Shown piece after piece: positions 1-27,050 of a stretch of 32,000 nt of DNA. The notes beneath the pieces were generated by a model. The model ran no database searches and was not told the DNA's origin. It worked only from the letters and a program-made list of their open reading frames with translations. The position numbers and the translations under genes were made by a program. The stretch is from a bacterium (lineage in GTDB: Bacteria > UBP7 > UBA6624): assembly GCA_002716355.1 (NCBI GenBank), contig PBAU01000002.1, positions 107,121-139,120 on the forward strand. The letters are read 5' to 3'. How positions within the stretch are numbered: the first letter of the stretch is position 1; each line of letters begins with the position of its first letter.

Positions 1-228
1 AATGCGTATCTTGGAGAGGCTGCAGGAAAATTCACAAGAACGCCAGCTGGCCATCCTGAAGGTTACCTCGAGGCTTTTGCAAACATTTACAGATGGTTTG
101 CCCGTTCGATACGGGGTGAGGAGAATGTTCCTGAATCGTATGCATCCATTGAGGATGGAGTCCGTGGGATCCGTTTCATCGAGGCTGCTATCGAATCATC
201 AGACAGTGAAACCTGGATTGATTTTTGA
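1..228 (+). CDS. Gfo/Idh/MocA-family oxidoreductase, C-terminal fragment (5' end lies outside the window)
   Basis: Frame +1 is open from base 1 to the TGA at 226-228. It reads ...TPAGHPEGYLEAFANIYRWFARSIRGE...GVRGIRFIEAAIESSDSETWIDF. The HPEGYxEAFANxY block is the C-terminal signature I associate with Gfo/Idh/MocA dehydrogenases. It is absent from the supplied ORF track because it has no start codon in the window. The listed frame +2 ORF 2..286 looks like a shadow of it. Confidence 0.55.
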   Translation, partial: NAYLGEAAGKFTRTPAGHPEGYLEAFANIYRWFARSIRGEENVPESYASIEDGVRGIRFIEAAIESSDSETWIDF

Positions 229-1364
229 TTGTGAAAAATTCTTATTTCCTACTTTTTTTAGTCATTGTTTTTTCAGGTTGTCTTAAAACCACTAAAGGAT
301 CAGAAGCTCCTCGCATTGTCGAGCAAACCCTTAAGTCTGAATTGTCACCCTGGGAAGAGGATCAGATGTTGACGCAATTGAATACAAGGGATCTCTTAAG
401 GAGAAAAATGTCTGAGCCTCTTGCTTACGAGCTTTTGGCAAGGCCGAACATCCCGCAAGAAAAACATCGTGACGCAATCAACTATCTTAAAGACATCAAC
501 AATGCAAACTTTGGGGATGAGGTCATCAATGCCAGCATACTATTAAGCGAACGTGGGGTTGCATTGGCCCATCTTGGGGTGCTTCTCATGGAGGCCGAAG
601 AGCTTGATTTTGACAAAACATGGGATGCCATAGGTAAACTTTATACAGATGAAACCCTGACCGCCTATCTTTTTGCCGGACTTCTTCTTTCGGATTACGA
701 CACTGCGAAAAACGCAATAGAGAAAGAAGAGGATGGTGTGTTCATACTGATCAGCTCAACATCCTTGGTTCCTGACGGTGAGGTCCGTAATAAGTTAACG
801 AATTATGCTATCGCCATTCTTTCAGATGCGGAAACAGATGATTTGGATATTCTTGAGGCTGGTATTTTGGCTATGAAGGACAATGAATACGGCCTTGACA
901 TTATGAGGGATTCGTTGATGGCAACTGCAGAAAACCATTCTTCAATAAATATCAGGTTTGCTGCGCTTGAGGCTCTTGGAAATGAAGTAGAAACAATCGA
1001 AATGAAAGCCATTCCGGTAATGAAGTACGACGTCAACTCTTTTTCCGTAAAGCCAGGCCAGCCTGTCAGGATCATCTTAAAGAACGAAGAGTCGATGCCA
1101 CATAATGTTGTTATTATTGAACCAGGATCCTTTCCAGACAAAATCATTGAAGAGCTTGCCGACCTGTATGGCTCTGCAGATGCTTCAGGTTTGGATTACA
1201 TCCCACAAACTGACACGGTTCTTTTCCATACTGCAATGATAAATGTTGACGAGTCTACAGAATTGCTGTTTTTTGCACCTGAGGATGAAGGTGTTTACCC
1301 TTATCTATGCACTTATCCAGGTCATTGGGCAACCATGAACGGCATCATGGAAGTCAAGAATTAA
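225..1364 (+). CDS. Lipoprotein with a helical-repeat (HEAT-like) N-terminal region and a C-terminal azurin-type cupredoxin (type-1 copper) domain
   Basis: The N-terminus MIVKNSYFLLFLVIVFSGC looks like a signal peptide with a lipobox-like FSGC. The start is TTG 225 or GTG 231. The C-terminal ~120 aa carry SMPHNVVII (His ligand) and YLCTYPGHWATMNG (Cys at 1308-1310, then x4-His-x3-Met), which is the azurin ligand spacing. Confidence 0.7.
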   Translation: MIVKNSYFLLFLVIVFSGCLKTTKGSEAPRIVEQTLKSELSPWEEDQMLTQLNTRDLLRRKMSEPLAYELLARPNIPQEKHRDAINYLKDINNANFGDEVINASILLSERGVALAHLGVLLMEAEELDFDKTWDAIGKLYTDETLTAYLFAGLLLSDYDTAKNAIEKEEDGVFILISSTSLVPDGEVRNKLTNYAIAILSDAETDDLDILEAGILAMKDNEYGLDIMRDSLMATAENHSSINIRFAALEALGNEVETIEMKAIPVMKYDVNSFSVKPGQPVRIILKNEESMPHNVVIIEPGSFPDKIIEELADLYGSADASGLDYIPQTDTVLFHTAMINVDESTELLFFAPEDEGVYPYLCTYPGHWATMNGIMEVKN

Positions 1365-8506: not shown

Positions 8507-8589
8507 TGCCGGTGGAGGGACTCGAACCCCCACGCCCTAACGGACACTAGTTCCTAAGACTAGCGCGTCTACCATTCCGCCACACCGGC
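8507..8589 (-). tRNA. tRNA-Leu, anticodon UAG
   Basis: The reverse complement is GCCGGTGTGGCGGAATGGTAGACGCGCTAGTCTTAGGAACTAGTGTCCGTTAGGGCGTGGGGGTTCGAGTCCCTCCACCGGCA. It has a perfect 7-bp acceptor stem, an anticodon stem CTAGT/ACTAG with loop CTTAGGA, a long variable arm (class II) and a TTCGAGT T-loop. CCA is not encoded. Confidence 0.9.
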
Positions 8590-8705: not shown

Positions 8706-11531
8706 ATGAGTGATCTTTTTGAATCTTTAGAACGTATACATACAGTTGATCTTTCTGAAACCATGGAGGATGCATATTTAAATTATGCTATGTCTGTCAT
8801 ATGTGGGCGTGCCCTTCCTGAGTCTAGAGATGGACTGAAACCAGTGCAAAGAAGAATTTTGTTTGAAATGGGGAATATGAATCTTTCGCCTGGAAGGCCG
8901 TATAGAAAATCTGCTCGTGTTGTAGGTTCCGTTATGGGTAAATGGCATCCCCATGGCGATGGTGCTATCTATGATGCTCTATCCAGAATGTCACAACCAT
9001 TTTCATTGCGTTACCCCCTTGTTGATGGGCATGGAAATTTTGGATCTATAGATGGTGATAGGCCAGCAGCACAAAGGTATACTGAATGTCGATTGTCGCC
9101 AATCGCTATGGAGATGCTGGCTGAGGTTGAACAGGAAACTGTAGATTGGGCACAAAATTATGATTCTTCAGCTGAGGAACCTGTCCTGCTTCCAAGCAGG
9201 CTACCAACATTGTTGATGAACGGATCAATGGGTGTGGCTGTTGGTGTAAGTACTGCAATACCGCCTCATAATCTCACAGAGCTTTTAGATGGGGCTTTAA
9301 TGCTTCTTGAAAATCCTGAATCCGAAGTAGAAGATTTAATGACCGTGATCAAGGGCCCTGATTTTCCCACAGGCGGTGTCATTCAGGGTAAAGCCGGAAT
9401 TAAATCCTATATTAAAACAGGTGTTGGTTCCATTCGTGTTCGAGCAAAAACAAAAATTGAAAGAGCGGAAGGGAGAAAAAACGCCAAAATTATTATTACA
9501 GAAATTCCATATCTAGTTAAGAAGCAAAGTATTGTTTTGCAAATGCATGAAGCTGCAAATAAGGATCGAATAAGAGGAATTAAGGCAATCAGGGATGAGT
9601 CTGGAAGAAAAGGTATCAGGATAGTAGTAGAAGTTTCAGCAAGACGAGACCCCAAGCTTGTTTTACATTTGCTTTTTAAGCATACTTCCCTACAGAGCTC
9701 ATTCCCTGCTCGAATGATAACGCTTGTTGATGGAGCACCTAAACCTTTACCACTAAAGGAATCTTTGCTAAACTACATCAACCATCGTTCTGCTGTTGTA
9801 AAGAGAAGATCTGCTTTCGAGTTAAGCAAAGCAGAAGCAAGAGCGCATATAGTTGAAGGTTTATTGGTAGCCTTAAAGGATATTGATGCTGTTATTGCAA
9901 TTATTAAGGCAAGCAAAGATAGAGAGGCGGCAAAAGAAAACCTAAGCAAGAAGTTAAAGATATCATCTTTACAATCTGACGCGATCGTAAGAATGCAATT
10001 AGGAACCTTAACAGGGTTAGAGGTTGAAAAATTACAAGCCGAAATGAAAGAGCTTCAGACAGCTATTGATTGGTACAAGAAGATATTGGGGGACGAAACA
10101 ACTTTAAATGGTGTTTTACGAGAAGAGATGGAAGGGTGGAGAGAAAAATACGGTGATGCACGTAGAACTAAAATTGACACAAGAGAGGCTGGTGACGAGA
10201 TGGTTATACAGCCAGAGTTGCAAGTCGTTATTTTCACTGAAAAGAATTACATAAAAAGAATACCTATTACTGATTTCAAAACATGGAGAAGAAGAGGTCA
10301 GGGCATTAAGGGCATTACCTTACAGCAGGGAGATACCGTAAAACAGCTTGATCTTTGCTGGAACACTGATGAGCTTTTCATGTTTACAGACAACGGTAAA
10401 ATATATTCAATTCCTGTCTACGATGTTATCGAGGGGGGCAGAGGGGCAAGAGGTATCCCTGTCCAAAATTACAGAAAGGAGCTTCAGCGTGAGAGAGTTG
10501 TTTGCATCAGAGCTCGAAAACAAGAGAAGGAAAGCCTTTTGATACTTACAGAAAAAGGTCGAGTGAAGCGATTGGCTCAAAAAGATGTTGCAAAAATTAT
10601 GAGACCTGGAAAAAAGGTTATGAGGGTTGACAAAGGTGATCGAATCGTGAATGCTTTATGGGTTGATGGCAATGATAGAGTCTTGACGGTTACGGCAAAT
10701 GGCAAGGCTTCACATCTTCCAGCTTCTGAAATTAGAGTAATGGGAAGAGCTGCTGGTGGTGTTAAGGCAATGACGTTGGAGACCACAAAGCGAGGCAAGA
10801 TAATCGATAAGATTGTTGATGCTGGTATTGTTGGACTGGAAGCCAAGGTTTCAGGAAAATTATCCTCCATTGAGGAAAAAGATGATGGTTCAAAAATACT
10901 AGTCATAGAGCCAAAAGGAATTACAAAGTTTTCTGGGAAAATTATTGATGCAGAGGGAACTAAAGACAACTATACTGTCAAAATAGATACGGGCTTAGCA
11001 CCCTTCCCAGAAAGAAACTTGAAATTCCCAGCAAGAAGTAAGCTATTAGTTGAACCAGGAACAAAAGTAAAAGCACTTGATGAAATTGTTGAGATGCCTG
11101 CAAAGTACCGAAAGCCAGTTGCGCATACTGTTCCACAACAAATGACCCTAGGTATCAAGATGGCTAAAAACAAAGACACAATGATTCTTGCTGGTGATAG
11201 TTTAACCATAGGGGATAGGGTTTTATTCGTAACTGATCAGGGTCTTGGCAAGCTTATGGATGCTCATTTGGTACGTAAAACACACCGGGGTTCAAAAGGT
11301 GTTAAGGTTTATTCAATCAAAACACCCAAAGGATCCAAGAGAAAAGGTGTAGGGAATCTTGCTAGATGTAGAGCTATTGGCAACGAGAAAGAGGTCGGCA
11401 TAGCGACAACCGATGGAAAAATTTATAAGACTGAAATCCAAGAGATATCGCAACAAAAAAGATCTAGTCGTGGCGTTATCGTTATTACGTTAAAGCCTGG
11501 CGACACTGTTGCTGATTTGGCAATTGTCTAA
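8706..11531 (+). CDS. gyrA: DNA gyrase subunit A, with an enlarged C-terminal domain
   Basis: 941 aa. Diagnostic blocks are RALPESRDGLKPVQRRILF, GKWHPHGDGAIYDALSRMSQPFSLRYPLVDGHGNFGSIDGD and the active-site block AAQRYTECRL (Tyr at 9078-9080). A GyrA-box-like RRRGQGIKG opens the beta-pinwheel CTD, which argues for GyrA rather than ParC. Confidence 0.9.
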   Translation: MSDLFESLERIHTVDLSETMEDAYLNYAMSVICGRALPESRDGLKPVQRRILFEMGNMNLSPGRPYRKSARVVGSVMGKWHPHGDGAIYDALSRMSQPFSLRYPLVDGHGNFGSIDGDRPAAQRYTECRLSPIAMEMLAEVEQETVDWAQNYDSSAEEPVLLPSRLPTLLMNGSMGVAVGVSTAIPPHNLTELLDGALMLLENPESEVEDLMTVIKGPDFPTGGVIQGKAGIKSYIKTGVGSIRVRAKTKIERAEGRKNAKIIITEIPYLVKKQSIVLQMHEAANKDRIRGIKAIRDESGRKGIRIVVEVSARRDPKLVLHLLFKHTSLQSSFPARMITLVDGAPKPLPLKESLLNYINHRSAVVKRRSAFELSKAEARAHIVEGLLVALKDIDAVIAIIKASKDREAAKENLSKKLKISSLQSDAIVRMQLGTLTGLEVEKLQAEMKELQTAIDWYKKILGDETTLNGVLREEMEGWREKYGDARRTKIDTREAGDEMVIQPELQVVIFTEKNYIKRIPITDFKTWRRRGQGIKGITLQQGDTVKQLDLCWNTDELFMFTDNGKIYSIPVYDVIEGGRGARGIPVQNYRKELQRERVVCIRARKQEKESLLILTEKGRVKRLAQKDVAKIMRPGKKVMRVDKGDRIVNALWVDGNDRVLTVTANGKASHLPASEIRVMGRAAGGVKAMTLETTKRGKIIDKIVDAGIVGLEAKVSGKLSSIEEKDDGSKILVIEPKGITKFSGKIIDAEGTKDNYTVKIDTGLAPFPERNLKFPARSKLLVEPGTKVKALDEIVEMPAKYRKPVAHTVPQQMTLGIKMAKNKDTMILAGDSLTIGDRVLFVTDQGLGKLMDAHLVRKTHRGSKGVKVYSIKTPKGSKRKGVGNLARCRAIGNEKEVGIATTDGKIYKTEIQEISQQKRSSRGVIVITLKPGDTVADLAIV

Positions 11532-11628
11532 TTCCAAGTTTCTTTATGTTGGACTGGATTCCGTTAAAGATTTGTTATTTGATGGTTGCAAATCAATCAA
11601 AGAAATTTTTACTTTTTTGAATTTTCAC

Positions 11629-12141
11629 ATGCATGCGCAAGAGGCCAGCTCTCTAATCGAAACAGTTCGAGGCCATTCAGGTGCTATATGTTTTTTCAAA
11701 TCTTCAATTCCAGAAGATTTATTAGAGAAAAAAAATTTATGTCAATCAAAGAAATATCTTTGTATAAAAGTGTATTCTGACAATTTGTATTTCCAAGAAT
11801 TGCCTTCACGAAAAACGATAAAAATTTCTTATCCTGAATTGGATTTAGACAATAACAACGGATTGCTGGGTGTGCAAATGAATCGTATTGCTAAAATGGT
11901 TAATGAGGTTGACAATGCTTTTTTGATAGTTAACCCAATTCAAGATGACAGTTTCCTGCCAACATTTTTAAAACTTGACCAATTGTTTTGGCTCTTGAGA
12001 GACTTGGAGAAAGTTAATCTTGTAGCGATTGAAAATCTTTGTATCTCAGATCCAGAAGCATGGGGGGTGGATGAGGGTTCTGAACCCAATCAATTTCTTA
12101 TGACAATGGCATCTATTGTTACCACAAGGAAAGCTAGTTAA
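11629..12141 (+). CDS. Hypothetical protein (orphan ORF)
   Basis: The open frame runs 11509..12141. The first ATG is at 11629, and the TTG at 11509 would overlap gyrA by 23 nt. I recognise no motif. Its 5' half is very AT-rich. It fills the only otherwise unexplained ~600 nt gap, so it is probably coding. Confidence 0.35.
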   Translation: MHAQEASSLIETVRGHSGAICFFKSSIPEDLLEKKNLCQSKKYLCIKVYSDNLYFQELPSRKTIKISYPELDLDNNNGLLGVQMNRIAKMVNEVDNAFLIVNPIQDDSFLPTFLKLDQLFWLLRDLEKVNLVAIENLCISDPEAWGVDEGSEPNQFLMTMASIVTTRKAS

Positions 12142-12751
12142 ATATATTTTGATATAGTGATATAAGTTTTTGTTCAAAATTTTTCTCATCAAACCTAACA
12201 ATGGCTCTGACGTAATTTTCTTTGTCAATTAGTAGAAGGTAGTTGGCATGAGCAATGTCGAACAAACCATCATTTTCAACCTCGTCCATTCCGCTCTTGA
12301 AACCATTAACTATTACATTTCTGATATCACTTTCTTCCCCTGTTAAGAAATTCCACCTCTCCTCAATTATTGACATTTCTTGGATGTATTCTTTAAGTCG
12401 TTTAGGGTTGTCATATTGTGGATCAACGGTAATGCTGATAAACTCAAGTTCGATATCGGGATATTTATCTTTAAAATTTTTTAATTTAGATATTTGCATT
12501 GGACACACACTTGTGCATTTTGTAAAAAAGAAATTTACAGCCCAATATTTTCCAGCCAACGTCTTGCTGGAAAACTGCTTTTCATTTTGATTGATTAAAT
12601 CAAAAGAGGGCGCCTTAAAGAGTTCCGGTAATGAATTTTTTCTCATATTGATTGCAAAAAAAATTAATACAATCGGAAGGATAATCATGATTATGAATAT
12701 TGGTCTTATCCATTTCTTTGCTTCATCATAAGTTTTTGGTATCTTCATCAT
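12134..12751 (-). CDS. SCO1/SenC-family copper chaperone (thioredoxin fold) for CuA assembly
   Basis: 205 aa with an N-terminal TM anchor (IFIIMIILPIVLIFFAI). It has the CxxxCP motif FFFTKCTSVCP and a downstream conserved His (DIAHANYLLLID). It is divergent from the cta cluster. Confidence 0.85.
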   Translation of the reverse strand: MMKIPKTYDEAKKWIRPIFIIMIILPIVLIFFAINMRKNSLPELFKAPSFDLINQNEKQFSSKTLAGKYWAVNFFFTKCTSVCPMQISKLKNFKDKYPDIELEFISITVDPQYDNPKRLKEYIQEMSIIEERWNFLTGEESDIRNVIVNGFKSGMDEVENDGLFDIAHANYLLLIDKENYVRAIVRFDEKNFEQKLISLYQNIFN

Positions 12752-13602: not shown

Positions 13603-14492
13603 AAAAAAAATTCCCTTATGTAGATATTACAAAACCAAGAATAACCTTTTTGGTTTTGCTAAGTACTGCTGTAGGTTTTTTTGCAGATACACAAGGTGGT
13701 CCTGGTGAATTTTGGCAATATTTTTTGTTTTTACTTTTGGGAACCGGTTTAGCTTCTGCGTCAGGCAGTGTGTTCAATAACATTCTTGACAGGGATATGG
13801 ATGCTTTGATGAATAGAACGAAAGAAAGGGCCATGCCGACAAAGAAAATTAAGGTCAAAGATGCTTTTTTTTATGCTTTTTTCCTTTTGTTTTCTGGGCT
13901 AATAATTCTTTGGAATTATTGCAATTCCATTTCAGCAGTACTTGCCTTTTTAGCAGTTTTTCTTTACGTTGTCTATACGTTTTTCTTAAAACGAAAAACT
14001 TCATTCTGTACTGTTGTGGGTGGAGCGCCAGGCGCTTTACCACCTTTGGTTGGCTATGCTGCCTCCAGAGGGGATCTGGGTGAGCCATTCGGAATTGCCT
14101 GGATGCTGTTTTATGTCATGTTTTTTTGGCAACCACCACATTTTTGGGCCCTAGCACTTAAGCATAAAGACGACTACAAGAAAACTGATTTCAAGATGTT
14201 ACCAGTTACCGACTCGGTTGATGTAACAAAAAAACAAATTCTTATTTACACAATAGTCATGGCAGTATTTGTTTTTGTGTTTGCAATAGAATTTGTTAAC
14301 CAGTTTTTCGTGCAGGTTTTACTGGTTCTGGCAACGTTATATTATCTTAGAGACACTTTCATGTTTTTGTCTAAAAAAGAAAATAAAAAATCAGCAAATG
14401 CATTATTCAAGACATCAGTATTTTTTATGGGTTTGTTTATGATTTTTTTATTGGTTGAATTTGTGCCCTTGAACCAAATCTCTCGTTTTTAA
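13599..14492 (+). CDS. ctaB: Protoheme IX farnesyltransferase (heme O synthase)
   Basis: 297 aa of the UbiA superfamily. Motifs are ITKPRITFLVL, NNILDRDMDALMNRTKERAMP and FWQPPHFWALA. The start is TTG and no nearby in-frame ATG exists. Confidence 0.9.
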   Translation: MKKKFPYVDITKPRITFLVLLSTAVGFFADTQGGPGEFWQYFLFLLLGTGLASASGSVFNNILDRDMDALMNRTKERAMPTKKIKVKDAFFYAFFLLFSGLIILWNYCNSISAVLAFLAVFLYVVYTFFLKRKTSFCTVVGGAPGALPPLVGYAASRGDLGEPFGIAWMLFYVMFFWQPPHFWALALKHKDDYKKTDFKMLPVTDSVDVTKKQILIYTIVMAVFVFVFAIEFVNQFFVQVLLVLATLYYLRDTFMFLSKKENKKSANALFKTSVFFMGLFMIFLLVEFVPLNQISRF

Positions 14493-14524
14493 TTATTGAA
14501 AAAGTTATACAATACCCTTTGGTT

Positions 14525-15511
14525 ATGTTTTTAGATTTCATACTTTCACCGCAAAATTGGCTTGATCCTGCAGGTCCAGTAGCATCAGACCAAAAAGACC
14601 TCTTTCTTTTTACCCTTTATCTGTGTATTGGAATATTCGTTATTGTGGGTGGCTTTATGCTTTATTCAATTTTGAAATTTAAAGCTAAACCAGGTGATGA
14701 GGAATTGCCTGATCAGAGTCATGATGGCACTCAATTAGAAATTGGATTAATGGTTGTTTCTGCAATTTTGGTTGCTGTTATAGCAGTGCCAAATGTTAAG
14801 CTTCTTTACAAATTGGCTGAACCCCCGCGTGGTTCAAACCCTTTGCAGGTTAATGTTATAGGCCATCAGTATTGGTGGGAGTTTGAAATACCTGAATACC
14901 AAATTGCAACAGCAAATGAATTCAAAATACCTATCGGAAGACCAATAGAGTTTAATGTAAGCTCTGTAGATGTTATTCATAGTTTTTGGGTTCCAAGATT
15001 GGGCGGTAAGGTTGATGCCGTGCCTGGTCGCGATAATTATTTATGGTTTCAGGCGGATCAGGAAGGTTGGTATTCTGGACAATGCGCTGAACTTTGCGGA
15101 TCCTCTCATGCAAAAATGAAATTCGAAGTTCATGCTGTTAATGATGAGGAATTTTTAGCATGGGTTGAGAAAGAGGCTGCACCTGCAGAACAGCCAATCA
15201 CAGAGTTGGCGAAAGAAGGAAAGGAGCTTTTCTTAACGAAAATGTGTGTCACATGTCATGCGGTCAAGGGTTACGATGGTGCTATTGGTATAACCGGACC
15301 AAATTTGTCTCATTTTGGAAGTCGTAGAAAGTTAGCCGGTATGTGGGTTGAAAACACCAAAGACAATCTTGAAGATTGGTTGGGTGATCCAGCTAGTTTT
15401 AAACCAGACAACATCATGGCGCTGCAGGGTCCAATGTATATTGATGATAAATTTGCTTTAACTAGAGATGAAATTGAAAAACTTGCAGCATACCTTAAGG
15501 AGCTTTACTGA
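14525..15511 (+). CDS. ctaC: Cytochrome c oxidase subunit II with a fused C-terminal cytochrome c domain (caa3 type)
   Basis: It has two N-terminal TMs. The CuA site is VIHSFWVPRLGGKVDAVPG...CAELCGSSHAKM. The C-terminal heme-c motif is CVTCHAV. I take the ATG at 14525; the track ORF begins at TTG 14519. Confidence 0.9.
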   Translation: MFLDFILSPQNWLDPAGPVASDQKDLFLFTLYLCIGIFVIVGGFMLYSILKFKAKPGDEELPDQSHDGTQLEIGLMVVSAILVAVIAVPNVKLLYKLAEPPRGSNPLQVNVIGHQYWWEFEIPEYQIATANEFKIPIGRPIEFNVSSVDVIHSFWVPRLGGKVDAVPGRDNYLWFQADQEGWYSGQCAELCGSSHAKMKFEVHAVNDEEFLAWVEKEAAPAEQPITELAKEGKELFLTKMCVTCHAVKGYDGAIGITGPNLSHFGSRRKLAGMWVENTKDNLEDWLGDPASFKPDNIMALQGPMYIDDKFALTRDEIEKLAAYLKELY

Positions 15512-17382
15512 TGTCAGGACATAGTCACAAACTTGCTTTACCAAAATTTCTTTCTTTCTTGAAAAACAGACCTACTAAAGAGAATGGTTTGGTTAGTTGG
15601 CTTACAACAGTTGATCATAAAAGAATCGGAATACTGTATCTTTATACTTCATTTTTCTTTTTGTTTGTGGGTGGTATCGAGGCTTTGTTTGTAAGGTCGC
15701 AATTGTCAGCCAACGATCTAGAAATTTTTGTTGGCTCAACTTACAACCAATTGGTCACTATGCATGCTACAACAATGATTTTCCTTGCAATAATGCCTCT
15801 TGCTGCGGCATTTTTTAACTTTATGATTCCATTACAGATAGGAGCTCGTGATGTTGCTTTCCCAAGGTTAAATGCTTTCTCTTATTTTATGTATTTAGCT
15901 GGCGGGATTGTCTTGAATGCTTCTTGGTTTATGGGGGGCGCTTCAGACGCTGGGTGGTTTGCTTATGCGCCTTTAACATCAGCAACATACAGTCCAACTC
16001 ATGGCGTAGATTTTTGGATTTTGGGTTTGATTCTTACTGGTATTTCTTCTACTGTTGCTGCGATTAATTTCATAGTCACAATAATTAACATGCGGGCTCC
16101 AGGAATGACATTGATGAAAATGCCTGTTTTTTCATGGATGGCTTTTGTCACTGCGTTTTTGCTTGCTTTTGCTCTTCCGGTAATCACAATTGCATTGATT
16201 ATCCTTTTTATGGATCGAAATTATGGCACAACATTTTTTCAGACTGCAGCAGGGGGAGACCCTATATTATGGCAACACCTTTTCTGGGTGTTCGGTCACC
16301 CTGAAGTGTATATTATTGTTCTTCCGGCATTTGGTATAGTTTCAGAAATTATTCCTGTTTTTTCTAGAAAGCCTTTATTTGGTTACAAATTGGTTGTTTT
16401 GTCAGGTGCTGCTATTGGATTCATGGGATTTACAGTTTGGAGTCACCATATGTTTACTGTTGGAATGGGCCCAATTGTTAATTCTGCATTTTCAATTACA
16501 ACGGCAGCTATTGCGATTCCAACCGGAGTCAAAATATTTAATTGGATTTTGACACTTTGGAATGGAAAAATTAAATTTTCTGTTCCGATGATGTATTCAA
16601 CTGCATTAGTGTTCTTGTTTATGGTAGGTGGTTTTTCGGGCTTGATGCATGGTGCAGCTGCTTCTGATTTCCAACAGCATGATACTTATTTTGTTGTTGC
16701 ACATTTTCATTACACCATCTTAGGTGGTGGTCTTTTTGGGTTTTTAGCTGGCACTGTTTACTGGTTGCCTAAATTCTTTGGAAAAATCATGGATGAAGAG
16801 CGTGGCCGAAAAATATTTTGGTGGATTTTCATTAGTTTCAATTTAACATTTTTCCCTATGCATTTCTTAGGCACAAGCGGTATGCCTAGAAGGATATACA
16901 CTTATTCATCTGATATGGAATGGACAGCATTAAATGGTTTCATAACATTAGCTTCATTTGTTTTGGGAATTGCCCTGCTTGTCTTTTTTATAGAAGTTAT
17001 CAAAGCTGTTAAAAGTAAAAATAAAGCTTCAGCCGATCCATGGGATGCTCGTACTCTTGAGTGGAGTATTCCCTCACCACCGCCAGTTTACAATTTTGCC
17101 GATTTGCCCAAGATTGAAAAGATTGATGAATTTTGGGAAAGTAAGGTTTCCAACAAGCCAATCAAGACATTACCAAGGGATCCTCATGGGATTCACATGC
17201 CGGGCAAATCATGGATGCCGCTCATCACTTCAATTGGCTTGTTGATTGCTTCTTTCGGTGCTGTTTATGAATCTGATTTGCGTTACATAGGATTAGGAAT
17301 TTTCTTATTGGCTTATTATGGTTGGGCTCTTGAGGGAGAGGCTGAATATTACCTTCCATACCCGAAGAAGGGGAAAAAGTAA
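15511..17382 (+). CDS. ctaD: Cytochrome c oxidase subunit I (heme-copper oxidase catalytic subunit)
   Basis: 623 aa. Motifs are WLTTVDHKRIGILYL, LFWVFGHPEVYIIVLP and HHMFTVG...VAHFHYT. An AAGGAG Shine-Dalgarno lies at 15497-15502, 8 nt before the ATG, and the ATG overlaps the ctaC stop (TGATG). The length matches long Bacillus-type CtaD with extra C-terminal helices. Confidence 0.95.
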   Translation: MSGHSHKLALPKFLSFLKNRPTKENGLVSWLTTVDHKRIGILYLYTSFFFLFVGGIEALFVRSQLSANDLEIFVGSTYNQLVTMHATTMIFLAIMPLAAAFFNFMIPLQIGARDVAFPRLNAFSYFMYLAGGIVLNASWFMGGASDAGWFAYAPLTSATYSPTHGVDFWILGLILTGISSTVAAINFIVTIINMRAPGMTLMKMPVFSWMAFVTAFLLAFALPVITIALIILFMDRNYGTTFFQTAAGGDPILWQHLFWVFGHPEVYIIVLPAFGIVSEIIPVFSRKPLFGYKLVVLSGAAIGFMGFTVWSHHMFTVGMGPIVNSAFSITTAAIAIPTGVKIFNWILTLWNGKIKFSVPMMYSTALVFLFMVGGFSGLMHGAAASDFQQHDTYFVVAHFHYTILGGGLFGFLAGTVYWLPKFFGKIMDEERGRKIFWWIFISFNLTFFPMHFLGTSGMPRRIYTYSSDMEWTALNGFITLASFVLGIALLVFFIEVIKAVKSKNKASADPWDARTLEWSIPSPPPVYNFADLPKIEKIDEFWESKVSNKPIKTLPRDPHGIHMPGKSWMPLITSIGLLIASFGAVYESDLRYIGLGIFLLAYYGWALEGEAEYYLPYPKKGKK

Positions 17383-18134
17383 TGGAGGCTTTGAAGTTGC
17401 AACCTGTAATAACAGCTTTTACTGTATTCGGTATTTTTGTTTGTGTTCTTTTGACTTATTATGCTCTATTAAACCTTTTCAAAAGCTTCCCTCGCATAAG
17501 GTCCAAAAAAGACAAAGAAGCAATTGCAGCTGAGGATGCTGACGTGCATCACCATGTTGATACATACACAGGTGAGCCAAACATAAAGCTTTTTTGGTGG
17601 GTATTTCTAGCTTCTGACTGTATGTTTTTTGGCTCTTTGATTACAGCTTATTTGATATACAAAGGTCAAAGTCTAGTCGGACCTTATCCATTGGATGTTT
17701 TTGATATGGAACTAACCACAATCAGCACATTCATTTTGCTTTTAAGCAGTTTTTTTATGGTTTTAACATTGTCCTCTATCCAAAAGGGTGATTTGGGCAA
17801 GTTTAGATTTTGGTGTTTTGCAACATTCTTGTGCGGGTTGACTTTTTTAGGTTTTCAAGTTTACGAGTTTGAGCATTTCATACATGAAGGACTACGATTG
17901 AAAACCAACCTGTTCGGAAGTACTTTTTATCTTCTAACAGGCACACATGGTGTGCACGTTGCAATCGGTGTTTTATGGCTTTTGGGAATGTTTATTTATT
18001 CCTTTTGGGGTGGCATTACAAAGGAGAGAGCTATAGAAGTAGAAATTGCCGGACTTTATTGGCATTTTGTTGATGTTGTTTGGATTGTTATTTTTTCTGT
18101 AATTTATTTGATGGAGCTACCAATCGGAGGTTAA
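17382..18134 (+). CDS. ctaE: Cytochrome c oxidase subunit III, with an N-terminal extension
   Basis: 250 aa. Motifs are FWWVFLASDCMFFGSLITAY, GFQVYEFEHF, FYLLTGTHGVHVAIGV and YWHFVDVVWIVIF. There is a 1-nt overlap (TAATG) with ctaD. Confidence 0.9.
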   Translation: MEALKLQPVITAFTVFGIFVCVLLTYYALLNLFKSFPRIRSKKDKEAIAAEDADVHHHVDTYTGEPNIKLFWWVFLASDCMFFGSLITAYLIYKGQSLVGPYPLDVFDMELTTISTFILLLSSFFMVLTLSSIQKGDLGKFRFWCFATFLCGLTFLGFQVYEFEHFIHEGLRLKTNLFGSTFYLLTGTHGVHVAIGVLWLLGMFIYSFWGGITKERAIEVEIAGLYWHFVDVVWIVIFSVIYLMELPIGG

Positions 18135-18138
18135 TTTT

Positions 18139-18882
18139 ATGTCGGACAATAAAGACCATGCATCTGTAAAACAATACATACAGGTTGCAATTATTTTAGC
18201 TTTGATAACTTGGCTTGAAGTAGTGATGCCGAACTGGCCTGTTCAATGGGTATTTACATTTGGTTTGTTGATTTTGGCAATTTTTAAATTTGTTTATGTA
18301 ATACAGATTTTCATGCATCTCAAATATGACAATAAGTTTTTCACAATATTATTGTTTTTTGGATTATTTTTAGCTGTAGGCACGATTTCAGCATTAATGA
18401 AAATTTATGATAGGGATTTCACTCTTCCATCGTTTATGGCACAATCAATGGGTCATGAGGAAACTAGCACGGATCATTCAGGAGAATCTGATCAAGCCAG
18501 TGTGGTTGAGGATTGTGCAGAAAGGGTGCCCTTTGATATAGAGATCATCGCTTCCGATCCAATGAATTTTGATATAGACGAGATAGTCGTTCCTTCTTGT
18601 TCAACAATAACCCTGACACTTGTAAATGATTCAAATATGGAGCATAATTTCGTTCTCATTTCTGAAGGGAAAGGAAATGAAATTGCTATGGCTGCAGTTG
18701 ATGCAGGCCCCTTGAATAACTATGTTCCAGAATCAGAAGATGTTCTTTTTGGAGGGGCTCTTGTTAAACCTCAAATTACAGAATCTTTTACATTTGATTC
18801 TCCTCCAATTGGTGAGTATGAATTTTTATGCACTTTTCCTGGTCATTATGTATTCATGAAAGGTTCTTTTACCGTTGAGTGA
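18139..18882 (+). CDS. Cytochrome oxidase subunit IV-like (CtaF/COX4_pro-like) membrane anchor fused to an azurin-type cupredoxin domain
   Basis: A GGAGG Shine-Dalgarno lies at 18126-18130, 8 nt before the ATG. Residues 1-90 form three TM helices with the subunit-IV-like block ...IFKFVYVIQIFMHLKYD... Residues ~95-130 form an acidic/Ser-rich linker. Residues ~131-247 form a cupredoxin with SNMEHNFVL (His169, 18643-18645) and FLCTFPGHYVFMKG (Cys231 at 18829-18831, His236, Met240). Confidence 0.7.
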   Translation: MSDNKDHASVKQYIQVAIILALITWLEVVMPNWPVQWVFTFGLLILAIFKFVYVIQIFMHLKYDNKFFTILLFFGLFLAVGTISALMKIYDRDFTLPSFMAQSMGHEETSTDHSGESDQASVVEDCAERVPFDIEIIASDPMNFDIDEIVVPSCSTITLTLVNDSNMEHNFVLISEGKGNEIAMAAVDAGPLNNYVPESEDVLFGGALVKPQITESFTFDSPPIGEYEFLCTFPGHYVFMKGSFTVE

Positions 18883-18896
18883 TTGGTGGAGTGTTT

Positions 18897-19304
18897 ATGA
18901 GTAAAAAAGAACCAAAAGTAATTGGTATTGGTGGTATTTTATTCAAATCAAAAAATCCTGATAAAACTAAAAAATGGTATCAAGAAAATTTAGGATTACC
19001 AACAGATCAATGGGGAACAATGTTTAAATCAAGAGATATTGATAACCCTGATCAAGTAAATTATCTTCAATGGAGTCCCTTTGATAAAAAAACTGATTAT
19101 TTTGATCCTTCTAAAAAAGAATTTATGATTAATTATAGGGTTCAAAATATTGAAGAATTTGTGAAAGTTTTAAAAGACAAAGAAATAACTGTTTTAGATG
19201 AAATTACTGAATATGATGGAATAGGTAAATTTGTTCATATTCTTGACCCTGAAGGTAATAAAATTGAACTTTGGGAACCACCAAAGTCCAACACAGTTGA
19301 GTAA
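18897..19304 (+). CDS. VOC (glyoxalase/bleomycin-resistance/dioxygenase) superfamily protein
   Basis: About 135 aa from the ATG at 18897, with GGAG 5 nt upstream. Motifs are IGIGGILFKSKNPDKTKKWYQENLGL and GKFVHILDPEGNKIELWEP, which is the typical VOC beta-alpha-beta-beta-beta pattern. It is markedly AT-rich compared with its neighbours. Confidence 0.7.
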   Translation: MSKKEPKVIGIGGILFKSKNPDKTKKWYQENLGLPTDQWGTMFKSRDIDNPDQVNYLQWSPFDKKTDYFDPSKKEFMINYRVQNIEEFVKVLKDKEITVLDEITEYDGIGKFVHILDPEGNKIELWEPPKSNTVE

Positions 19305-19309
19305 AGCTA

Positions 19310-20122
19310 TTGTTGTTAGGTTTATTTCTTCATCCTAGTTCCGAGCACTCAGCTCTTGATGGTCCTTACATATGGAATCATTCCGTGCCGGTAATATCCC
19401 TTTTACTAGGAATGCTATTTGCTTACTTGTTGGTAGTTGGGCCAAGAAGAAAAGACTGGGTTGAAAACAAATCCTTTCCATCGAAAAATTTTACTTATTG
19501 GCTATTGGGCCTTGTGTCTTTATATTTGGCTATTGCTTCGCCAATAGATCACATTGGTGAAAAGTATTTATTTTGGGTGCATATGGTTCAGCATATCATT
19601 TTGATATTCATATCGCCTATCTTTTTTCTCCTAGCCATTCCACAATGGATGGCAGAAAGACTATTTGCAAAGAACTCAAAATTAGAGAAAATTACTCATC
19701 CTTTTTTTGCTGCTTTAATATTTAATACCATTTTTATTTTTTGGCACATTCCTTATTTTTATGAGTTAGCACTAGTCAATAAAATGGTGCACGATCTTGA
19801 GCATTTAACCTTTGTTATTGGGGCTTTGATTATGTGGTGGCCCATTATTAGGCCAGTCAAAAGTTGGCAAAAGCAACCTGGTTCAAGCTTGCTTCTTTAT
19901 CTTTTTGTAATTGTGACATTTCAGATTCCTCTTTTTGTGCTTTTGACTTTTTCTCCTGATTTATGGTATCCATTTTATGGAGAGGCTTCAAGACTTGAAG
20001 GATGGTTGGATATTTCTGCAATTGAAGATCAGGCCTTAGGCGGATTGATAATGAAGACCATTGCCGGTTTTGCATATTTTGTTGCTTTTGTGTATGTTTG
20101 GTTGAAATGGGCTAAGGATTAA
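19310..20122 (+). CDS. ctaG: Cytochrome c oxidase assembly factor CtaG (Bacillus caa3_CtaG-type membrane protein)
   Basis: 270-aa polytopic protein. The block ASPIDHIGEKYLFWVHMVQHIILIFISPIFFLLAIPQW carries the HMxQH motif I associate with the caa3_CtaG family. It occupies the last position of the cta cluster, as in Bacillus. The start is TTG. Confidence 0.7.
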   Translation: MLLGLFLHPSSEHSALDGPYIWNHSVPVISLLLGMLFAYLLVVGPRRKDWVENKSFPSKNFTYWLLGLVSLYLAIASPIDHIGEKYLFWVHMVQHIILIFISPIFFLLAIPQWMAERLFAKNSKLEKITHPFFAALIFNTIFIFWHIPYFYELALVNKMVHDLEHLTFVIGALIMWWPIIRPVKSWQKQPGSSLLLYLFVIVTFQIPLFVLLTFSPDLWYPFYGEASRLEGWLDISAIEDQALGGLIMKTIAGFAYFVAFVYVWLKWAKD

Positions 20123-23100
20123 ATTCAATCCCCAGTTCATCAAAAACAAAAGCCCATGTATCTGCCAGCTCTTCAACTACCTTATGTAAAGGTTTGCCAG
20201 CTCCATGACCGGCATTTTTTTCAACCCGTAAGAGAGTTAATGATTGCGGATGCAGTTCTTGAACAAGTGCAGCGAATTTTCGTGCATGCAATGGATCCAC
20301 TCTTGTATCATGGTCAGCAGTTTTTAAAAGGAGATTAGGCCATTCTTCAGCTGATGGGACGTTATGGTAAGGGCTGTATGCATGCAGCCATTCAAAATCC
20401 TCTTTTTTGTCAGGGTCTCCGTATTCAGCTCTCCATAAACTTGCAATTAGGAATTTAGGGAATCGAATCATATCCAGCAATGGAACAGAGCACACTACAG
20501 CTTTAAAAAGTTCAGGTCTTTGGGTCATTGTTGCGCCAACCAGTAAGCCGCCATTGCTACCGCCAGAAATTACTATCTTGTTTGAATTTGTATATTTATT
20601 TTCTATTAGCCATTCAGCAGCTGCAATAAAGTCATCAAAAGTATTTTGTTTATTTCCCAACATGCCATCGTTATGCCACGAAGAACCATATTCACTGCCA
20701 CCTCTTAAATTTGGAAGAGCAAAAATTCCACCACTTTCCAAAAACGGGATTATGCTTGATCGAAATCCAGGAGTTTGCGAGATTGCAAATCCACCATAAC
20801 CGTATAGGTATGTTGGATTTTTTCCATCGAGAATAACATTTTTTTTATGGACGACAAACATTGTTACAATCGTCCCATCTTTTGATTCATATTCGACCTG
20901 CTTAACGGTTATGTCATCAGTTTTAGCATTAGATTTATTTTGTTCCCAGATTATTGTTTTGTCTGTTTTGTCATCCCACCTATAGATTGTTGTTGGGGAG
21001 TTGAAAGAAGTGTACGAGTAATAGTAAGGACCCTGCTCTTTTCTTGCGCTAAATGTTCCAATGCTCCCAATGCCAGGAAGCGGAATATCAGATATTTTGT
21101 TTGTTTCAGGATCCAATAACTTCATTACATGGTGTGCTTTTTTCATGTATCTCAACACTATTTTTCCACCTGCCCACCAAGCTTCAAACATGTTTTCACC
21201 TGGTTTTAAAACCAAAGTCCAGCTATTTTTTTGAAGTTTTGCGCTATCAAGCTGAATTTTCCAAAGCATGCCATTTGGACTATTTTCACTTGTTTCACTC
21301 ACGTAAAAAGCATCATTTCTGAAAAGCATTTGACCATAGTAGGTTTTGTGGTCCATTTCTGTAATCGGGATTATCTCATTCGAATCTTTTAAATTTTTGA
21401 TGAAAATTTGACTTGTATCCCAACCATTCCATGCATTTATGATTAGCCATTCGCCATTATCGCTTACCAAAGGTACTGGCCACTCCTCCTTTATCCTGCC
21501 TTCTCCGAAAATGTATTTATCATCTTGCCAGTTATCACCCATTTTGTGAAAATATATTTTTCGATAGTAATCTTCATCTCCTGCAGGTACAGTTCCTGGA
21601 ACAGGCCATCTGCCATAAAAAAATCCTGAATTGTCAGGTAGCCATGCTGGCGAACCCCAACGTGCATATGGAATTTCATCCTTGTATTTATATCCATCTT
21701 TAACTCTTTTGATATGTATGGTTGATTTCTCATCTCCATTTTCGCTAATACCATAAGCTATATGGCTTCCATCAGGAGAAATACTATACCAATCAAGACT
21801 CGTGGTGCCTTTTTCATTCCATGAATTTGGATTAAGAAGAATCGATCCAGATCCATCATTCGGATTCAGTCTTTCTTGAATTGGGTGTTTGCTTGAAGCC
21901 GGATAATCCTTCCAAAAAAGTACAGAGTGATTTTGGCCAGCTTTTCTTTCTGACCAAAACATTCTTTTGCCAAAAAATGTAGGAGCGCCAGTGCTATCGT
22001 TGTTTGTCAGTTTTTCAAAACTGGTTTTTAACTTTTCATGGTTTTTTAAATTATGCAAATAGGTTCTTGTTATTACATCTTGGCTGTCAGACCATTTAAG
22101 AACCTCATCAGACTCTCCATCCTCTAACCACCTGTAGTTGTCTGTAATCTCAATTCCATGCACGTTTTCAACAACAGGTATTTTTTTTGTCGGCAATATG
22201 AATGAAGCAGCAATAAGGCGTTCATCATCTTTCCAATCTTCTTCAATGGATAGGGAGGATGCATGACCTTCCATAGTAAGTGTTTCAACAATTGCTTCTG
22301 CAACATCCGCACCCCTTGCTCTAACTGATCTGCTTTGTTCCATGTGTATAAATTTTCCTGTTGTTTTTTGTGCAGATGTTAAACATGGTTCAGATACTCC
22401 ATTTACATCTCTGCCTTGAACATTAGTGCTCCCACATAAGTGAAGCTTCCTGGTTGCCCCCTCATAGTCATTGCATGTTGTTACATTTTCATTTTCAAAT
22501 CTTTTCGATAAATTGTCAGCTAGCCTAGCAACAAAGCTTTCTTTTGAGGTTTGTAATGATGTGCCATCAGAAAGACTGATCCCGCCTGCAGCCATTCCAT
22601 GAATACTTATAGTTATTGATTCGGGAAAGGTTTCAGTTGTTTTTTTGTGCATTGTGTGAAAAAGTGTCCTATCGTTATGAGCAGGATCGGATATTCCATA
22701 TGCTTTTCTTTCAGGCCTTGAGCATGCCGTTGTTGTTCCTGAACAACCAGAAGGTTTTTGATTTGTGCACCTGTGCGTCCCGCTAATGATTAAAACTTTT
22801 GCATTTGAATTTTTAAATATTTCCAAACCCTGCTTTAAGGTTCCATCAAATATTGGATGTGGTGTCTCCAAGATTAAATCTAATCCTTTTTTTCTCAAAA
22901 GCATCCATGGCCAACCTTTTTTTGAGGGACTCCATTGATAAACCTGATTTTTTTTATCGACACACAATCTGTAACCAGCCTGTTTTGCTTTTTCTGACGC
23001 TAGACCTGGTTGATTTTCAACAAGATGATCAAACGACATTTTCCATAAATTTTTGAGTTGCTTGCTTTCTTCTTGATATATCCCCTCATTAGGCTTCAGT

Positions 23101-23216
23101 ATGCTGTCAGAATTAATATTTTTCCAATCTGAATCTAAACATTCTGGAATCACAAAATTAAATAAAAAAATCCACATTGTTTTTCTCCTTCTTTTGAATA
23201 ATTTGATTATAAGCAA
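20112..23216 (-). CDS. Prolyl oligopeptidase (S9A serine peptidase) with an additional ~300-aa Cys-rich N-terminal domain
   Basis: Residues ~345-1034 are a canonical POP. They show GIEITDNYRWLED, a beta-propeller region, the catalytic Ser in ISGGSNGGLL, Asp in TADHDTRVDP and His in NAGHGAGKP. Residues ~27-320 form an extra domain with 8 Cys. The start is either TTG 23216 (which gives the KRRRK n-region of a signal peptide) or ATG 23177 (AAGGAG at 23185-23190, 7-nt spacer). Confidence 0.85.
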   Translation of the reverse strand: MLIIKLFKRRRKTMWIFLFNFVIPECLDSDWKNINSDSILKPNEGIYQEESKQLKNLWKMSFDHLVENQPGLASEKAKQAGYRLCVDKKNQVYQWSPSKKGWPWMLLRKKGLDLILETPHPIFDGTLKQGLEIFKNSNAKVLIISGTHRCTNQKPSGCSGTTTACSRPERKAYGISDPAHNDRTLFHTMHKKTTETFPESITISIHGMAAGGISLSDGTSLQTSKESFVARLADNLSKRFENENVTTCNDYEGATRKLHLCGSTNVQGRDVNGVSEPCLTSAQKTTGKFIHMEQSRSVRARGADVAEAIVETLTMEGHASSLSIEEDWKDDERLIAASFILPTKKIPVVENVHGIEITDNYRWLEDGESDEVLKWSDSQDVITRTYLHNLKNHEKLKTSFEKLTNNDSTGAPTFFGKRMFWSERKAGQNHSVLFWKDYPASSKHPIQERLNPNDGSGSILLNPNSWNEKGTTSLDWYSISPDGSHIAYGISENGDEKSTIHIKRVKDGYKYKDEIPYARWGSPAWLPDNSGFFYGRWPVPGTVPAGDEDYYRKIYFHKMGDNWQDDKYIFGEGRIKEEWPVPLVSDNGEWLIINAWNGWDTSQIFIKNLKDSNEIIPITEMDHKTYYGQMLFRNDAFYVSETSENSPNGMLWKIQLDSAKLQKNSWTLVLKPGENMFEAWWAGGKIVLRYMKKAHHVMKLLDPETNKISDIPLPGIGSIGTFSARKEQGPYYYSYTSFNSPTTIYRWDDKTDKTIIWEQNKSNAKTDDITVKQVEYESKDGTIVTMFVVHKKNVILDGKNPTYLYGYGGFAISQTPGFRSSIIPFLESGGIFALPNLRGGSEYGSSWHNDGMLGNKQNTFDDFIAAAEWLIENKYTNSNKIVISGGSNGGLLVGATMTQRPELFKAVVCSVPLLDMIRFPKFLIASLWRAEYGDPDKKEDFEWLHAYSPYHNVPSAEEWPNLLLKTADHDTRVDPLHARKFAALVQELHPQSLTLLRVEKNAGHGAGKPLHKVVEELADTWAFVFDELGIEFNP

Positions 23217-26199: not shown

Positions 26200-26222
26200 A
26201 TAGTAGGATAATAGAAGCCTTT

Positions 26223-26293
26223 TGGCCGGTCGTATAAGGGCAGTACAACGGACTTTGGATCCGTGAGTGGAGGTTCGAATCCTTCCCGGCCAG
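26223..26293 (+). tRNA. tRNA-Gln, anticodon UUG
   Basis: TGGCCGG-TC-GTAT-AAGGGCA-GTAC-A-ACGGA-CTTTGGA-TCCGT-GAGT-GGAGG-TTCGAAT-CCTTC-CCGGCCA-G. It folds into a full cloverleaf with anticodon TTG. The U1:A72 first pair is typical of bacterial tRNA-Gln. CCA is not encoded. Confidence 0.85.
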
Positions 26294-26303
26294 TTTTTAT
26301 GTT

Positions 26304-27050
26304 ATGGATTTTGTTCTCGCGATCCTCGTTCTTTTTTTAATTGCTTTTCTTTTTGCTGCCACTGGTCATGGAGGGGGGAGCGGGTATTTGGCACTTTTTT
26401 TGATTTGGGGAGTTCTTCCCATGGAAGCCAAGCTCTATGCTTTGGTTTTAAATGTTCTTGTTTCGTATTTGGCATTTTCGAATTTCAGGAAAGCCGGGTT
26501 GTTTGATTCCTCATTGGCATTTCCATTGCTTATCGGCTCCCTGCCTGCCTTTTGTATTTTCGTAAAAACTGCACCCGGTGAGGATTTTTACAATCAAGTT
26601 GTAGGTTTGTTGCTTTTGTTTTCTGCATTAAGGCTTTTTGTCCCCCATAATAAAAAAAAATACAAACTGAAAAAAAAACCAAAAACATGGATGCTCGTTT
26701 TGCTGGGTTTTTGCATTGGTGGCCTGGCTGGTTTTATCGGTATAGGAGGGGGAATTTTCCTTTCGCCCCTCTTGATTTTTTTCGGATGGGCAGATCCAAA
26801 AAAAACAGCGGCCATAAGTTCAATTTTTGTTTTGGTAAACTCAGCATTAGGGGTTTCTTTACTGCTTCCAGAGCTTGGATGGCTTTGGCAGATCTTTGCT
26901 TTGATCTTGAACGGGTCCTTTTTGCTTGTGGCTGTTGGTTTTGGAGGGTGGCTTGGATCTCTCCATGGTAGCAAAACGTTCAACAAGGTTATTATGAACA
27001 GAGCTTTAGGCGCTATCTTGCTAATAGCATCAGTATTGCTTGTTTATTGA
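26304..27050 (+). CDS. TSUP (TauE/SafE, DUF81) family membrane transporter
   Basis: 248 aa with two internally repeated halves, each opening with a Gly-rich helix (ATGHGGGSGYLALFL and FIGIGGGIFLSPLL). About 8 TMs. Confidence 0.8.
   Translation: MDFVLAILVLFLIAFLFAATGHGGGSGYLALFLIWGVLPMEAKLYALVLNVLVSYLAFSNFRKAGLFDSSLAFPLLIGSLPAFCIFVKTAPGEDFYNQVVGLLLLFSALRLFVPHNKKKYKLKKKPKTWMLVLLGFCIGGLAGFIGIGGGIFLSPLLIFFGWADPKKTAAISSIFVLVNSALGVSLLLPELGWLWQIFALILNGSFLLVAVGFGGWLGSLHGSKTFNKVIMNRALGAILLIASVLLVY

Follow-up and report, generated by a model that had tools for sequence, protein, structure and literature searches.

The window analyzed here is a 32,000-nucleotide stretch of a bacterial genome (GTDB lineage Bacteria; UBP7; UBA6624), positions 107,121 to 139,120 of contig PBAU01000002.1 in assembly GCA_002716355.1, and our subject within it is a gene that joins subunit IV of a caa3-type cytochrome c oxidase to a type-1 copper domain in a single polypeptide. 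The gene belongs to an oxidase gene cluster with the order SCO1 (on the minus strand)/ctaA-ctaB-ctaC-ctaD-ctaE-fusion-VOC-ctaG, in which the genes overlap or lie a few bases apart. It occupies 18139..18882 on the plus strand as one open reading frame (ORF) of 247 codons that starts with ATG. A GGAGG Shine-Dalgarno sequence (18126..18130, plus strand) precedes this ATG by 8 nucleotides and falls within the last codons of ctaE, the stop codon of which (18132-18134) lies just 5' of the fusion start. An earlier sequence-only reading of this DNA had described an uninterrupted 247-codon frame with its own GGAGG, and both were recovered at these positions when the sequence was read again. The exact protein is deposited at NCBI as MBG97654.1 under the label "hypothetical protein CL659_00850 [bacterium]". 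The automatic name given in IMG to a sibling protein, "azurin/heme/copper-type cytochrome/quinol oxidase subunit 4", already lists both domains.

The N-terminal part of the protein (residues 1-95; 18139..18423, plus strand) is predicted to be a three-helix membrane anchor of the COX4_pro or CyoD type. Pfam COX4_pro (PF03626) matches residues 16-80 with 31.8 bits, above its gathering score of 28.9, and the same model gives 32-54 bits for distant fusions of this kind. A profile made from the N-terminal halves of nine family members finds Escherichia coli bo3 CyoD (6wti_D) with an E value of 1.8e-5 and covers all three helices, aligning fusion residues 3-90 with CyoD residues 3-96. The AlphaFold2 model, which was built from eight diverse family members, places the helices at residues 10-32, 36-61, and 66-95, in agreement with hydropathy. 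These matches bear out the earlier assignment of residues ~1-90 to a subunit-IV-like, three-helix anchor. The score against the caa3 subunit IV subfamily (NCBIfam TIGR02229) is 17.7 bits and does not reach the cut-off of 37.25, so the anchor is best described as a divergent COX4_pro that lies outside that subfamily model. In an alignment of 28 fusion clusters, from which all conservation counts given here are taken, the anchor residues H7, K50, M59, and H60 are invariant (28/28). Subunit IV of A-family oxidases is usually seen as small and without an assigned catalytic role. Like CyoD, QoxD, and CtaF (PF03626), the fusion protein has a three-helix bundle, an MHLK motif, and a gene placed directly after that for subunit III; unlike it, those proteins are only ~100-110 amino acids long and carry no extramembrane domain.

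Beyond the anchor, residues 96-129 (18424..18525, plus strand) form a disordered, acidic tether rich in Ser and Thr. The predicted local distance difference test score (pLDDT) of the AlphaFold2 model falls below 50 over residues 92-123, and the corresponding segment varies across the 28 clusters from 31 to 72 residues (median 46, never fewer than 31), rich in Ala, Ser, Thr, Asp, Glu, and Gly and with no conserved sequence. Both the low confidence and the family variability agree with the ~35-residue acidic, Ser-rich linker described in the earlier reading. By standard polymer scaling, a random coil of ~39 residues would have an end-to-end distance of ~40 Å and a maximum reach of ~130 Å, on the scale of the gap between the subunit III/IV side of the enzyme and its CuA/heme c region. 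Histidine makes up 4.8% of all linker residues. The Dehalococcoidia-type linkers (P0021, P0153-P0156, and P0162-P0165) are rich in His, Asp, Ser, and Thr, as in GHGSDSHDTSH, and their His/Asp-rich composition might allow them to bind metal ions.

The C-terminal part (residues 130-247; with the stop codon, 18526..18882, plus strand) is a predicted type-1 copper cupredoxin domain, auracyanin- or azurin-like by Pfam, PDB profile, and Foldseek comparison. Pfam Copper-bind (PF00127) scores 36.4 bits over residues 139-247 against a threshold of 21.2, and AlphaFold2 models residues 130-247 as a Greek-key beta-sandwich with a pLDDT of ~90. The predicted copper ligands are His169 (codon 18643-18645), Cys231 (18829-18831), His236 (18844-18846), and Met240 (18856-18858), all on the plus strand, and the spacing Cys231-x4-His236-x3-Met240 is that of azurin. 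All four ligands named in the sequence-only reading thus stand at their positions and with their spacing. Together with N170, P234, G235, and G242, these ligands are invariant in the fusion family (28/28). Because the ligands and the Asn that follows His169 are retained without exception while overall identity falls to ~28-34%, the copper site appears to be under selection.

Although the domain had been described as azurin-type, a description that holds for its fold, its ligands, and their spacing, it does not hold for azurin in the strict sense. The azurin equivalog TIGR02695 is missed (56.4 bits vs a cut-off of 105.1), and auracyanins are closer in both the profile and the structural rankings, for which reasons we rejected azurin as a formal identity. 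In the PDB profile search, auracyanin A (2aan) is found with an E value of 2.4e-19 and the Roseiflexus auracyanin (6kol) with 4.2e-16, vs ~1e-12 or weaker for azurins. Foldseek likewise ranks auracyanins 6kol and 2aan first and second (TM-score 0.85-0.88, root-mean-square deviation 1.5 Å, 34% identity), with azurins at a TM-score of ~0.82 and 25-30% identity, within an overall range of 0.80-0.88 for the two groups. Judged by sequence and model, then, the copper domain is nearer to the auracyanins of Chloroflexi than to azurin, a statement of similarity and not of formal auracyanin membership. Azurin shares the Cys-x4-His-x3-Met and His-Asn motifs and the fold, and it is soluble, which the fused domain is not. 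In a BLASTP alignment with Pseudomonas aeruginosa azurin (31% identity), Cys154 falls on azurin Cys26. A candidate partner for it is Cys126 in the linker, which lies outside the azurin alignment; the pair is confined to the clade of the window (3/28), where it may form a disulfide of the azurin type (Cys3-Cys26 in azurin).

The topology of the anchor bears directly on where the copper domain would reside. Nearly all of 30 family members examined have three hydrophobic segments, and in nearly all of them the loop between the second and third segments is net positive, whereas the loop between the first and second and the stretch that follows the third are neutral or acidic. This pattern of loop charges fits an anchor with its N-terminus inside and its C-terminus outside. 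Chepuri and Gennis reportedly found in 1990 that CyoD itself has a cytoplasmic N-terminus and a periplasmic C-terminus. A sister protein described below (P0113), the anchor of which is 45% identical to that in the window, bears a c-type cytochrome, and c-type cytochromes mature solely outside the cytoplasm, through the Ccm and Ccs systems; the periplasmic side is therefore favored for the cupredoxin as well. These lines strongly suggest that the anchor is oriented N-in/C-out and that the copper domain is periplasmic, as had been proposed. The Lys-rich N-terminus offered earlier in favor of this orientation does not exist, because the actual N-terminus contains two Lys and two Asp and has a net charge of 0.

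The fusion is not unique to this genome. An identical protein occurs on ~19 contigs from NCBI, JGI, ENA, Logan, and Tara assemblies, and orthologs at 92, 75, 74, 74, and 71% identity are present in five metagenome-assembled genomes (MAGs) that serve as GTDB species representatives and in several metagenomes. In these orthologs, the domains are conserved and the linker evolves fast, including an in-frame insertion or deletion, and the single frame is kept. An exhaustive HMMER search of 1.84 billion cluster representatives recovered more full-length fusions at ~28-34% identity to the window protein, and a profile search of a 5.8-billion-protein set returned 24 clusters with the PF03626 plus PF00127 architecture, one of them carrying the label of a hypothetical protein from a Dehalococcoidia MAG. 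The survey for such fusions that the earlier reading had proposed yields, from uncultured bacteria, at least 28 protein clusters that extend down to ~28% identity.

The operon places the fusion gene in the subunit IV slot of an A-family oxidase. Divergent from it lies the gene for a SCO1/SenC copper chaperone for CuA assembly (12134..12751, minus strand; Pfam SCO1-SenC, 98.7 bits), and on the plus strand ctaA for heme A synthase (12796-13602; Pfam COX15-CtaA) is followed by ctaB for heme O synthase (13599-14492; Pfam UbiA). Subunit II is encoded by ctaC (14519..15511, plus strand), which matches COX2_TM, COX2, and Cytochrom_C and scores 209 bits against TIGR02866 (cut-off 147.7); it has the full CuA motif CAELCGSSHAKM and, as in the sequence-only reading, a fused cytochrome c with the heme-binding motif CVTCH. 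Next come ctaD for subunit I (15511..17382, plus strand), deposited as MBG97652.1 under the name cytochrome c oxidase subunit I and represented in the related contig L001 by an ortholog with PF00115, and ctaE for subunit III (17382..18134, plus strand; Pfam COX3, 57.1 bits, residues 67-243). After the fusion gene stands a VOC/glyoxalase-like gene (plus strand, from an ATG at 18897 or a GTG at 18879 to 19304), and then ctaG, which encodes a Bacillus-type caa3 assembly factor (19310..20122, plus strand; Pfam Caa3_CtaG, 184 bits). The fusion gene had been said to sit between ctaE and ctaG; it does directly follow ctaE, but here the VOC gene separates it from ctaG. The VOC gene looks recently inserted, since it is absent at this position from all relatives examined (L001, L005 at 92% identity, L008, and L009).

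This placement is widely retained. In L001, L002, L005, L008-L014, and L017, clades only ~30% identical included, the fusion gene comes immediately after that for subunit III, and the order holds in every recovered context long enough to judge. In the distant clade (L010, L011, L013, and L014), the arrangement is COX2(+heme c)-COX1-COX3-fusion-CtaG-CtaA-CtaB-SCO1, and in L012, where the contig begins at this point, only the COX3 gene and then the fusion are seen. Subunit II carries the CuA motif and one CxxCH in all 11 sequences that include this subunit. Because CuA and heme c are kept in every case, the enzyme would oxidize one-electron carriers and not quinol, and because the heme c is retained, the cupredoxin is an addition to it and not a replacement. 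Taken together with the match of the anchor to COX4_pro, the gene order indicates that the probable product of the fusion gene is the fourth subunit of a caa3-type cytochrome c oxidase of the A family. CtaE of the window has 250 residues, with an N-terminal extension of ~65 residues in which there are an additional hydrophobic helix and an HHHVD motif; its distant relatives have 198-220 residues.

The same slot can hold other modules. P0004 (L017 8001-9248), a protein of 415 amino acids encoded at the subunit IV position of a caa3-type operon, has a COX4_pro anchor followed by two tandem cupredoxins, and P0113 (L019 2566-3276), with 236 amino acids and a CTACH motif, has a COX4_pro anchor followed by a cytochrome c domain in the same slot. 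As the slot holds one cupredoxin, two cupredoxins, or a cytochrome c, the appended module appears to be interchangeable among electron carriers. Open reading frames that combine COX IV with cytochrome c are a passing entry in Table A3 of an earlier study (PMC8756737). Such proteins share with the fusion in the window the COX4_pro anchor, the operon slot, and a C-terminal periplasmic module, the difference being that the module is a heme c and not a cupredoxin.

Full-text searches of the open literature found no description of a COX4_pro-cupredoxin fusion, and this result, together with the NCBI label "hypothetical protein", agrees with the earlier reading, which knew of no described oxidase with this architecture. 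A fusion equivalent in concept is on record, however. Halobacterium salinarum OE_4073R is an uncharacterized fusion of halocyanin with CbaD that has been cited in support of halocyanin as an oxidase donor, and its CbaD-related part is listed as homologous to a subunit of the characterized Natronomonas pharaonis terminal oxidase encoded by the cba genes (PMC8305020). Like the protein studied here, OE_4073R has a blue copper carrier covalently joined to one of the small accessory subunits of a terminal oxidase; unlike it, OE_4073R is archaeal and has the reverse domain order, with the halocyanin N-terminal. We take the related oxidase to be of the ba3 (B-family) type, CbaD to be unrelated to COX4_pro, and halocyanin to belong to the plastocyanin-like branch. 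That halocyanin is joined to CbaD in an archaeon, and that subunit IV also occurs with a cytochrome c or with two cupredoxins, suggests that this solution has evolved more than once.

Several other oxidases make use of tethered carriers. The fusion of subunit II with cytochrome c in the caa3 oxidases of Thermus and Bacillus and the membrane-anchored cytochrome cy follow the same principle of a carrier held on a flexible linker (PMC8361435); in those cases the carrier is a heme protein, borne by subunit II or by an anchor of its own, and not a copper protein on subunit IV. Auracyanins A and B of Chloroflexus aurantiacus and the auracyanin of Roseiflexus castenholzii (2aan, 1ov8/1qhq, and 6kol) share the His-Cys-His-Met site and are likewise membrane-tethered periplasmic carriers. 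They are free-standing proteins held by a lipid or an N-terminal helix of their own, whereas in the fusion protein the anchor is an oxidase subunit, with the copper domain C-terminal to it. AcoP (PMC4059628) and sulfocyanin SoxE, the latter from the SoxM supercomplex of Sulfolobus, are membrane-anchored cupredoxins whose genes lie with those of a terminal oxidase and which associate with it physically; both are separate polypeptides and not subunit IV fusions, and the copper site of AcoP is unusual in being green, while its role is a stabilizing one. Pfam SoxE gives weak matches to the window protein (E value 0.046) and to P0004 (4.3e-9). Compared with all of these, what is new here is a predicted bacterial A-family oxidase subunit IV with an auracyanin-like domain, in an enzyme with two covalently attached carriers. 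The fusion extends a familiar design principle and is not surprising in kind.

We consider that the copper domain probably serves as a captive one-electron shuttle in the periplasm that feeds the oxidase. As subunit IV, the anchor would be embedded in the oxidase with a cytoplasmic N-terminus and an external C-terminus, and the flexible acidic linker of ~35 residues would let the copper domain swing across the periplasmic face of the enzyme. The domain would take electrons from a donor, most plausibly a quinol-oxidizing Alternative Complex III or a bc-type complex and otherwise another cupredoxin or a cytochrome, and pass them to the heme c or the CuA of subunit II. With the carrier tethered, the stoichiometry would be fixed at 1:1 and the local concentration would be high, and no soluble carrier would be needed. 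We infer both which way the electrons flow and what donates them. The proposal draws on the canonical and invariant type-1 site in the fold of known carriers, on the exchange of the module for other electron carriers in sister genes, and on the auracyanins as the nearest solved relatives. Auracyanin A has been proposed as the electron link between Alternative Complex III and cytochrome c oxidase (PMC9316378), and cytochrome cy is an established example of an anchored carrier that moves between complexes III and IV on a long linker (PMC8361435).

Several observations weigh against such a shuttle. The oxidase already bears a fused heme c, beside which a second carrier looks redundant. In structures of A-family oxidases, subunit IV lies against subunit I on the side where subunit III is bound, remote from subunit II. 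The confidence of the AlphaFold2 model in the membrane part is only ~55-65. Pfam searches of all large ORFs of the window found no Alternative Complex III, bc1/b6f complex, or soluble cytochrome c. Nor is there a donor complex within 10 kb downstream on a related contig (L015) or beside the operon in the syntenic L005, L008, and L009. With subunit IV so placed, the copper domain would have to span ~40-60 Å to reach subunit II, a distance that the length of the linker makes plausible.

One alternative, which we regard as unlikely, is that the cupredoxin stabilizes the oxidase or handles copper, whether as a relay or buffer that loads CuA or CuB or as a protection against copper stress. The precedent is AcoP of Acidithiobacillus ferrooxidans, a cupredoxin from the cox cluster that is anchored by a transmembrane segment and tightly bound to the oxidase, and that restores activity to destabilized oxidase (PMC4059628). 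The metal-binding potential of the His/Asp-rich Dehalococcoidia-type linkers points the same way, as does a weak match to the copper-resistance cupredoxin CopI in NCBIfam (17.5 bits, E value 0.0026), although this score is far under the CopI cut-off of 280. A conserved His-Cys-His-Met site in an auracyanin/azurin fold is, however, a signature of electron transfer and not of copper delivery, and the replacement of the cupredoxin by cytochrome c in sister genes suits electron transfer but not copper trafficking. SCO1 and CtaG, moreover, are already encoded in the cluster, which favors a shuttle over a role in assembly.

A further, slightly less probable alternative is that the cupredoxin provides an electron exit or branch, fed by the fused heme c or by the donor of the oxidase and leading to periplasmic acceptors such as a copper nitrite reductase or nitrous oxide reductase, or a one-electron store that speeds the reduction of O2. 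Azurins and pseudoazurins do serve denitrification enzymes, the tandem cupredoxins of P0004 suggest a relay or an electron store, and a second cupredoxin lipoprotein in the window (225..1364) means that a network of several cupredoxins exists. Against an exit, neither the window nor any of the related loci examined contains denitrification genes, and the covalent bond of the domain to an oxidase subunit, like the strict tie of its gene to the cta operon, speaks for a domain that serves the oxidase itself. The last alternative, that the fusion arose by an assembly or sequencing error that joined ctaF to a separate auracyanin gene or is a decaying gene without function, could appeal to the frameshifts that MAG-derived sequence may contain and to the low complexity of the linker, but it is effectively refuted by the identical protein on ~19 contigs from several assembly sources, by full-length orthologs at 71-92% identity in five species representatives and in metagenomes, by the retention of one frame, both domains, and all ligands in 28 clusters down to ~28% identity, and by scores above the Pfam thresholds for both halves. 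The same record serves as an approximation to the read-level check for a frameshift or stop that the sequence-only reading had called for.

Returning to the tethered shuttle, we tentatively extend it to a broader possibility, in which subunit IV acts as a modular docking platform that hard-wires interchangeable periplasmic carriers to the oxidase in several uncultured lineages. In the marine clade of the window, the oxidase might then be self-contained, its two bound carriers arranged in series along a path from type-1 Cu through heme c to CuA, with the long tether reaching a neighboring quinol-oxidizing complex and no diffusible carrier taking part. If this were true, it would amount to a supercomplex-like electron path whose added carrier uses copper and not iron. 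For most uncultured bacteria, it is a fundamental unanswered question where terminal oxidases obtain their electrons, and a fused carrier would name that carrier outright and give subunit IV a concrete job. For the marine and Dehalococcoidia-type bacteria that encode the fusion, an auracyanin-based link to a caa3 oxidase is suggested; for Chloroflexus, such a link has been proposed but never demonstrated. The fusion would also be a natural 1:1 construct for studies of how electrons pass from type-1 Cu to heme c and CuA, and for electron cryomicroscopy.

The second cupredoxin protein of the window (225..1364, plus strand) has 379 residues, with a lipobox-like N-terminus (LVIVFSGC), a helical middle part that has no Pfam match, and, at the C-terminus, a Copper-bind domain (39.5 bits) that has the ligand motifs MPHNVVI and CTYPGHWATMNG. 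This domain is 32% identical to the fused one, and the protein could be a partner or donor in a chain of several cupredoxins.

Other features of the surroundings may be noted. A prolyl oligopeptidase gene of the S9 family (20112..23216, minus strand; 1034 amino acids, with an N-terminal extension of ~340 residues that has no Pfam match) adjoins the cta operon throughout the clade (L001, L005, and L008). On the related contig L015, the 10 kb downstream contain only housekeeping genes, among them ssb-cinA-recA-rny-ymdB in this order (16658-20943), of which cinA-recA-rny-ymdB is an arrangement known from Bacillus subtilis. Together with the Bacillus-type CtaG, this order hints at a Terrabacteria-like lineage. 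The nearest GyrA matches, at 63-97% identity, are labeled only "bacterium", and those that come next, from Firmicutes, share ~47% identity. As these matches do not point to one phylum, the argument that carriers must be tethered in monoderm cells does not extend to this organism. Promoter-like and terminator-like sites in the window are no more frequent than in shuffled sequence, and the G+C content of the window is 0.34-0.41. The only Rfam or ARAGORN matches in the window are a tRNA-Leu (TAG; 8507-8589, minus strand) and a tRNA-Gln (TTG; 26222-26294, plus strand). Genes for a TauE/SafE-family membrane protein (26304..27050, plus strand) and a P19/FetP-type periplasmic Fe2+ transport protein (PF10634; 27047..27703, plus strand) are adjacent, and this pair could bear on the iron and copper economy of an oligotrophic marine organism. 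Between gyrA and SCO1, and overlapping both, lies an ORF of 210 amino acids (11509..12141, plus strand) that has no Pfam match; ORFs of similar size occupy this position in L005, L008, and L009, and it may be a real conserved gene.

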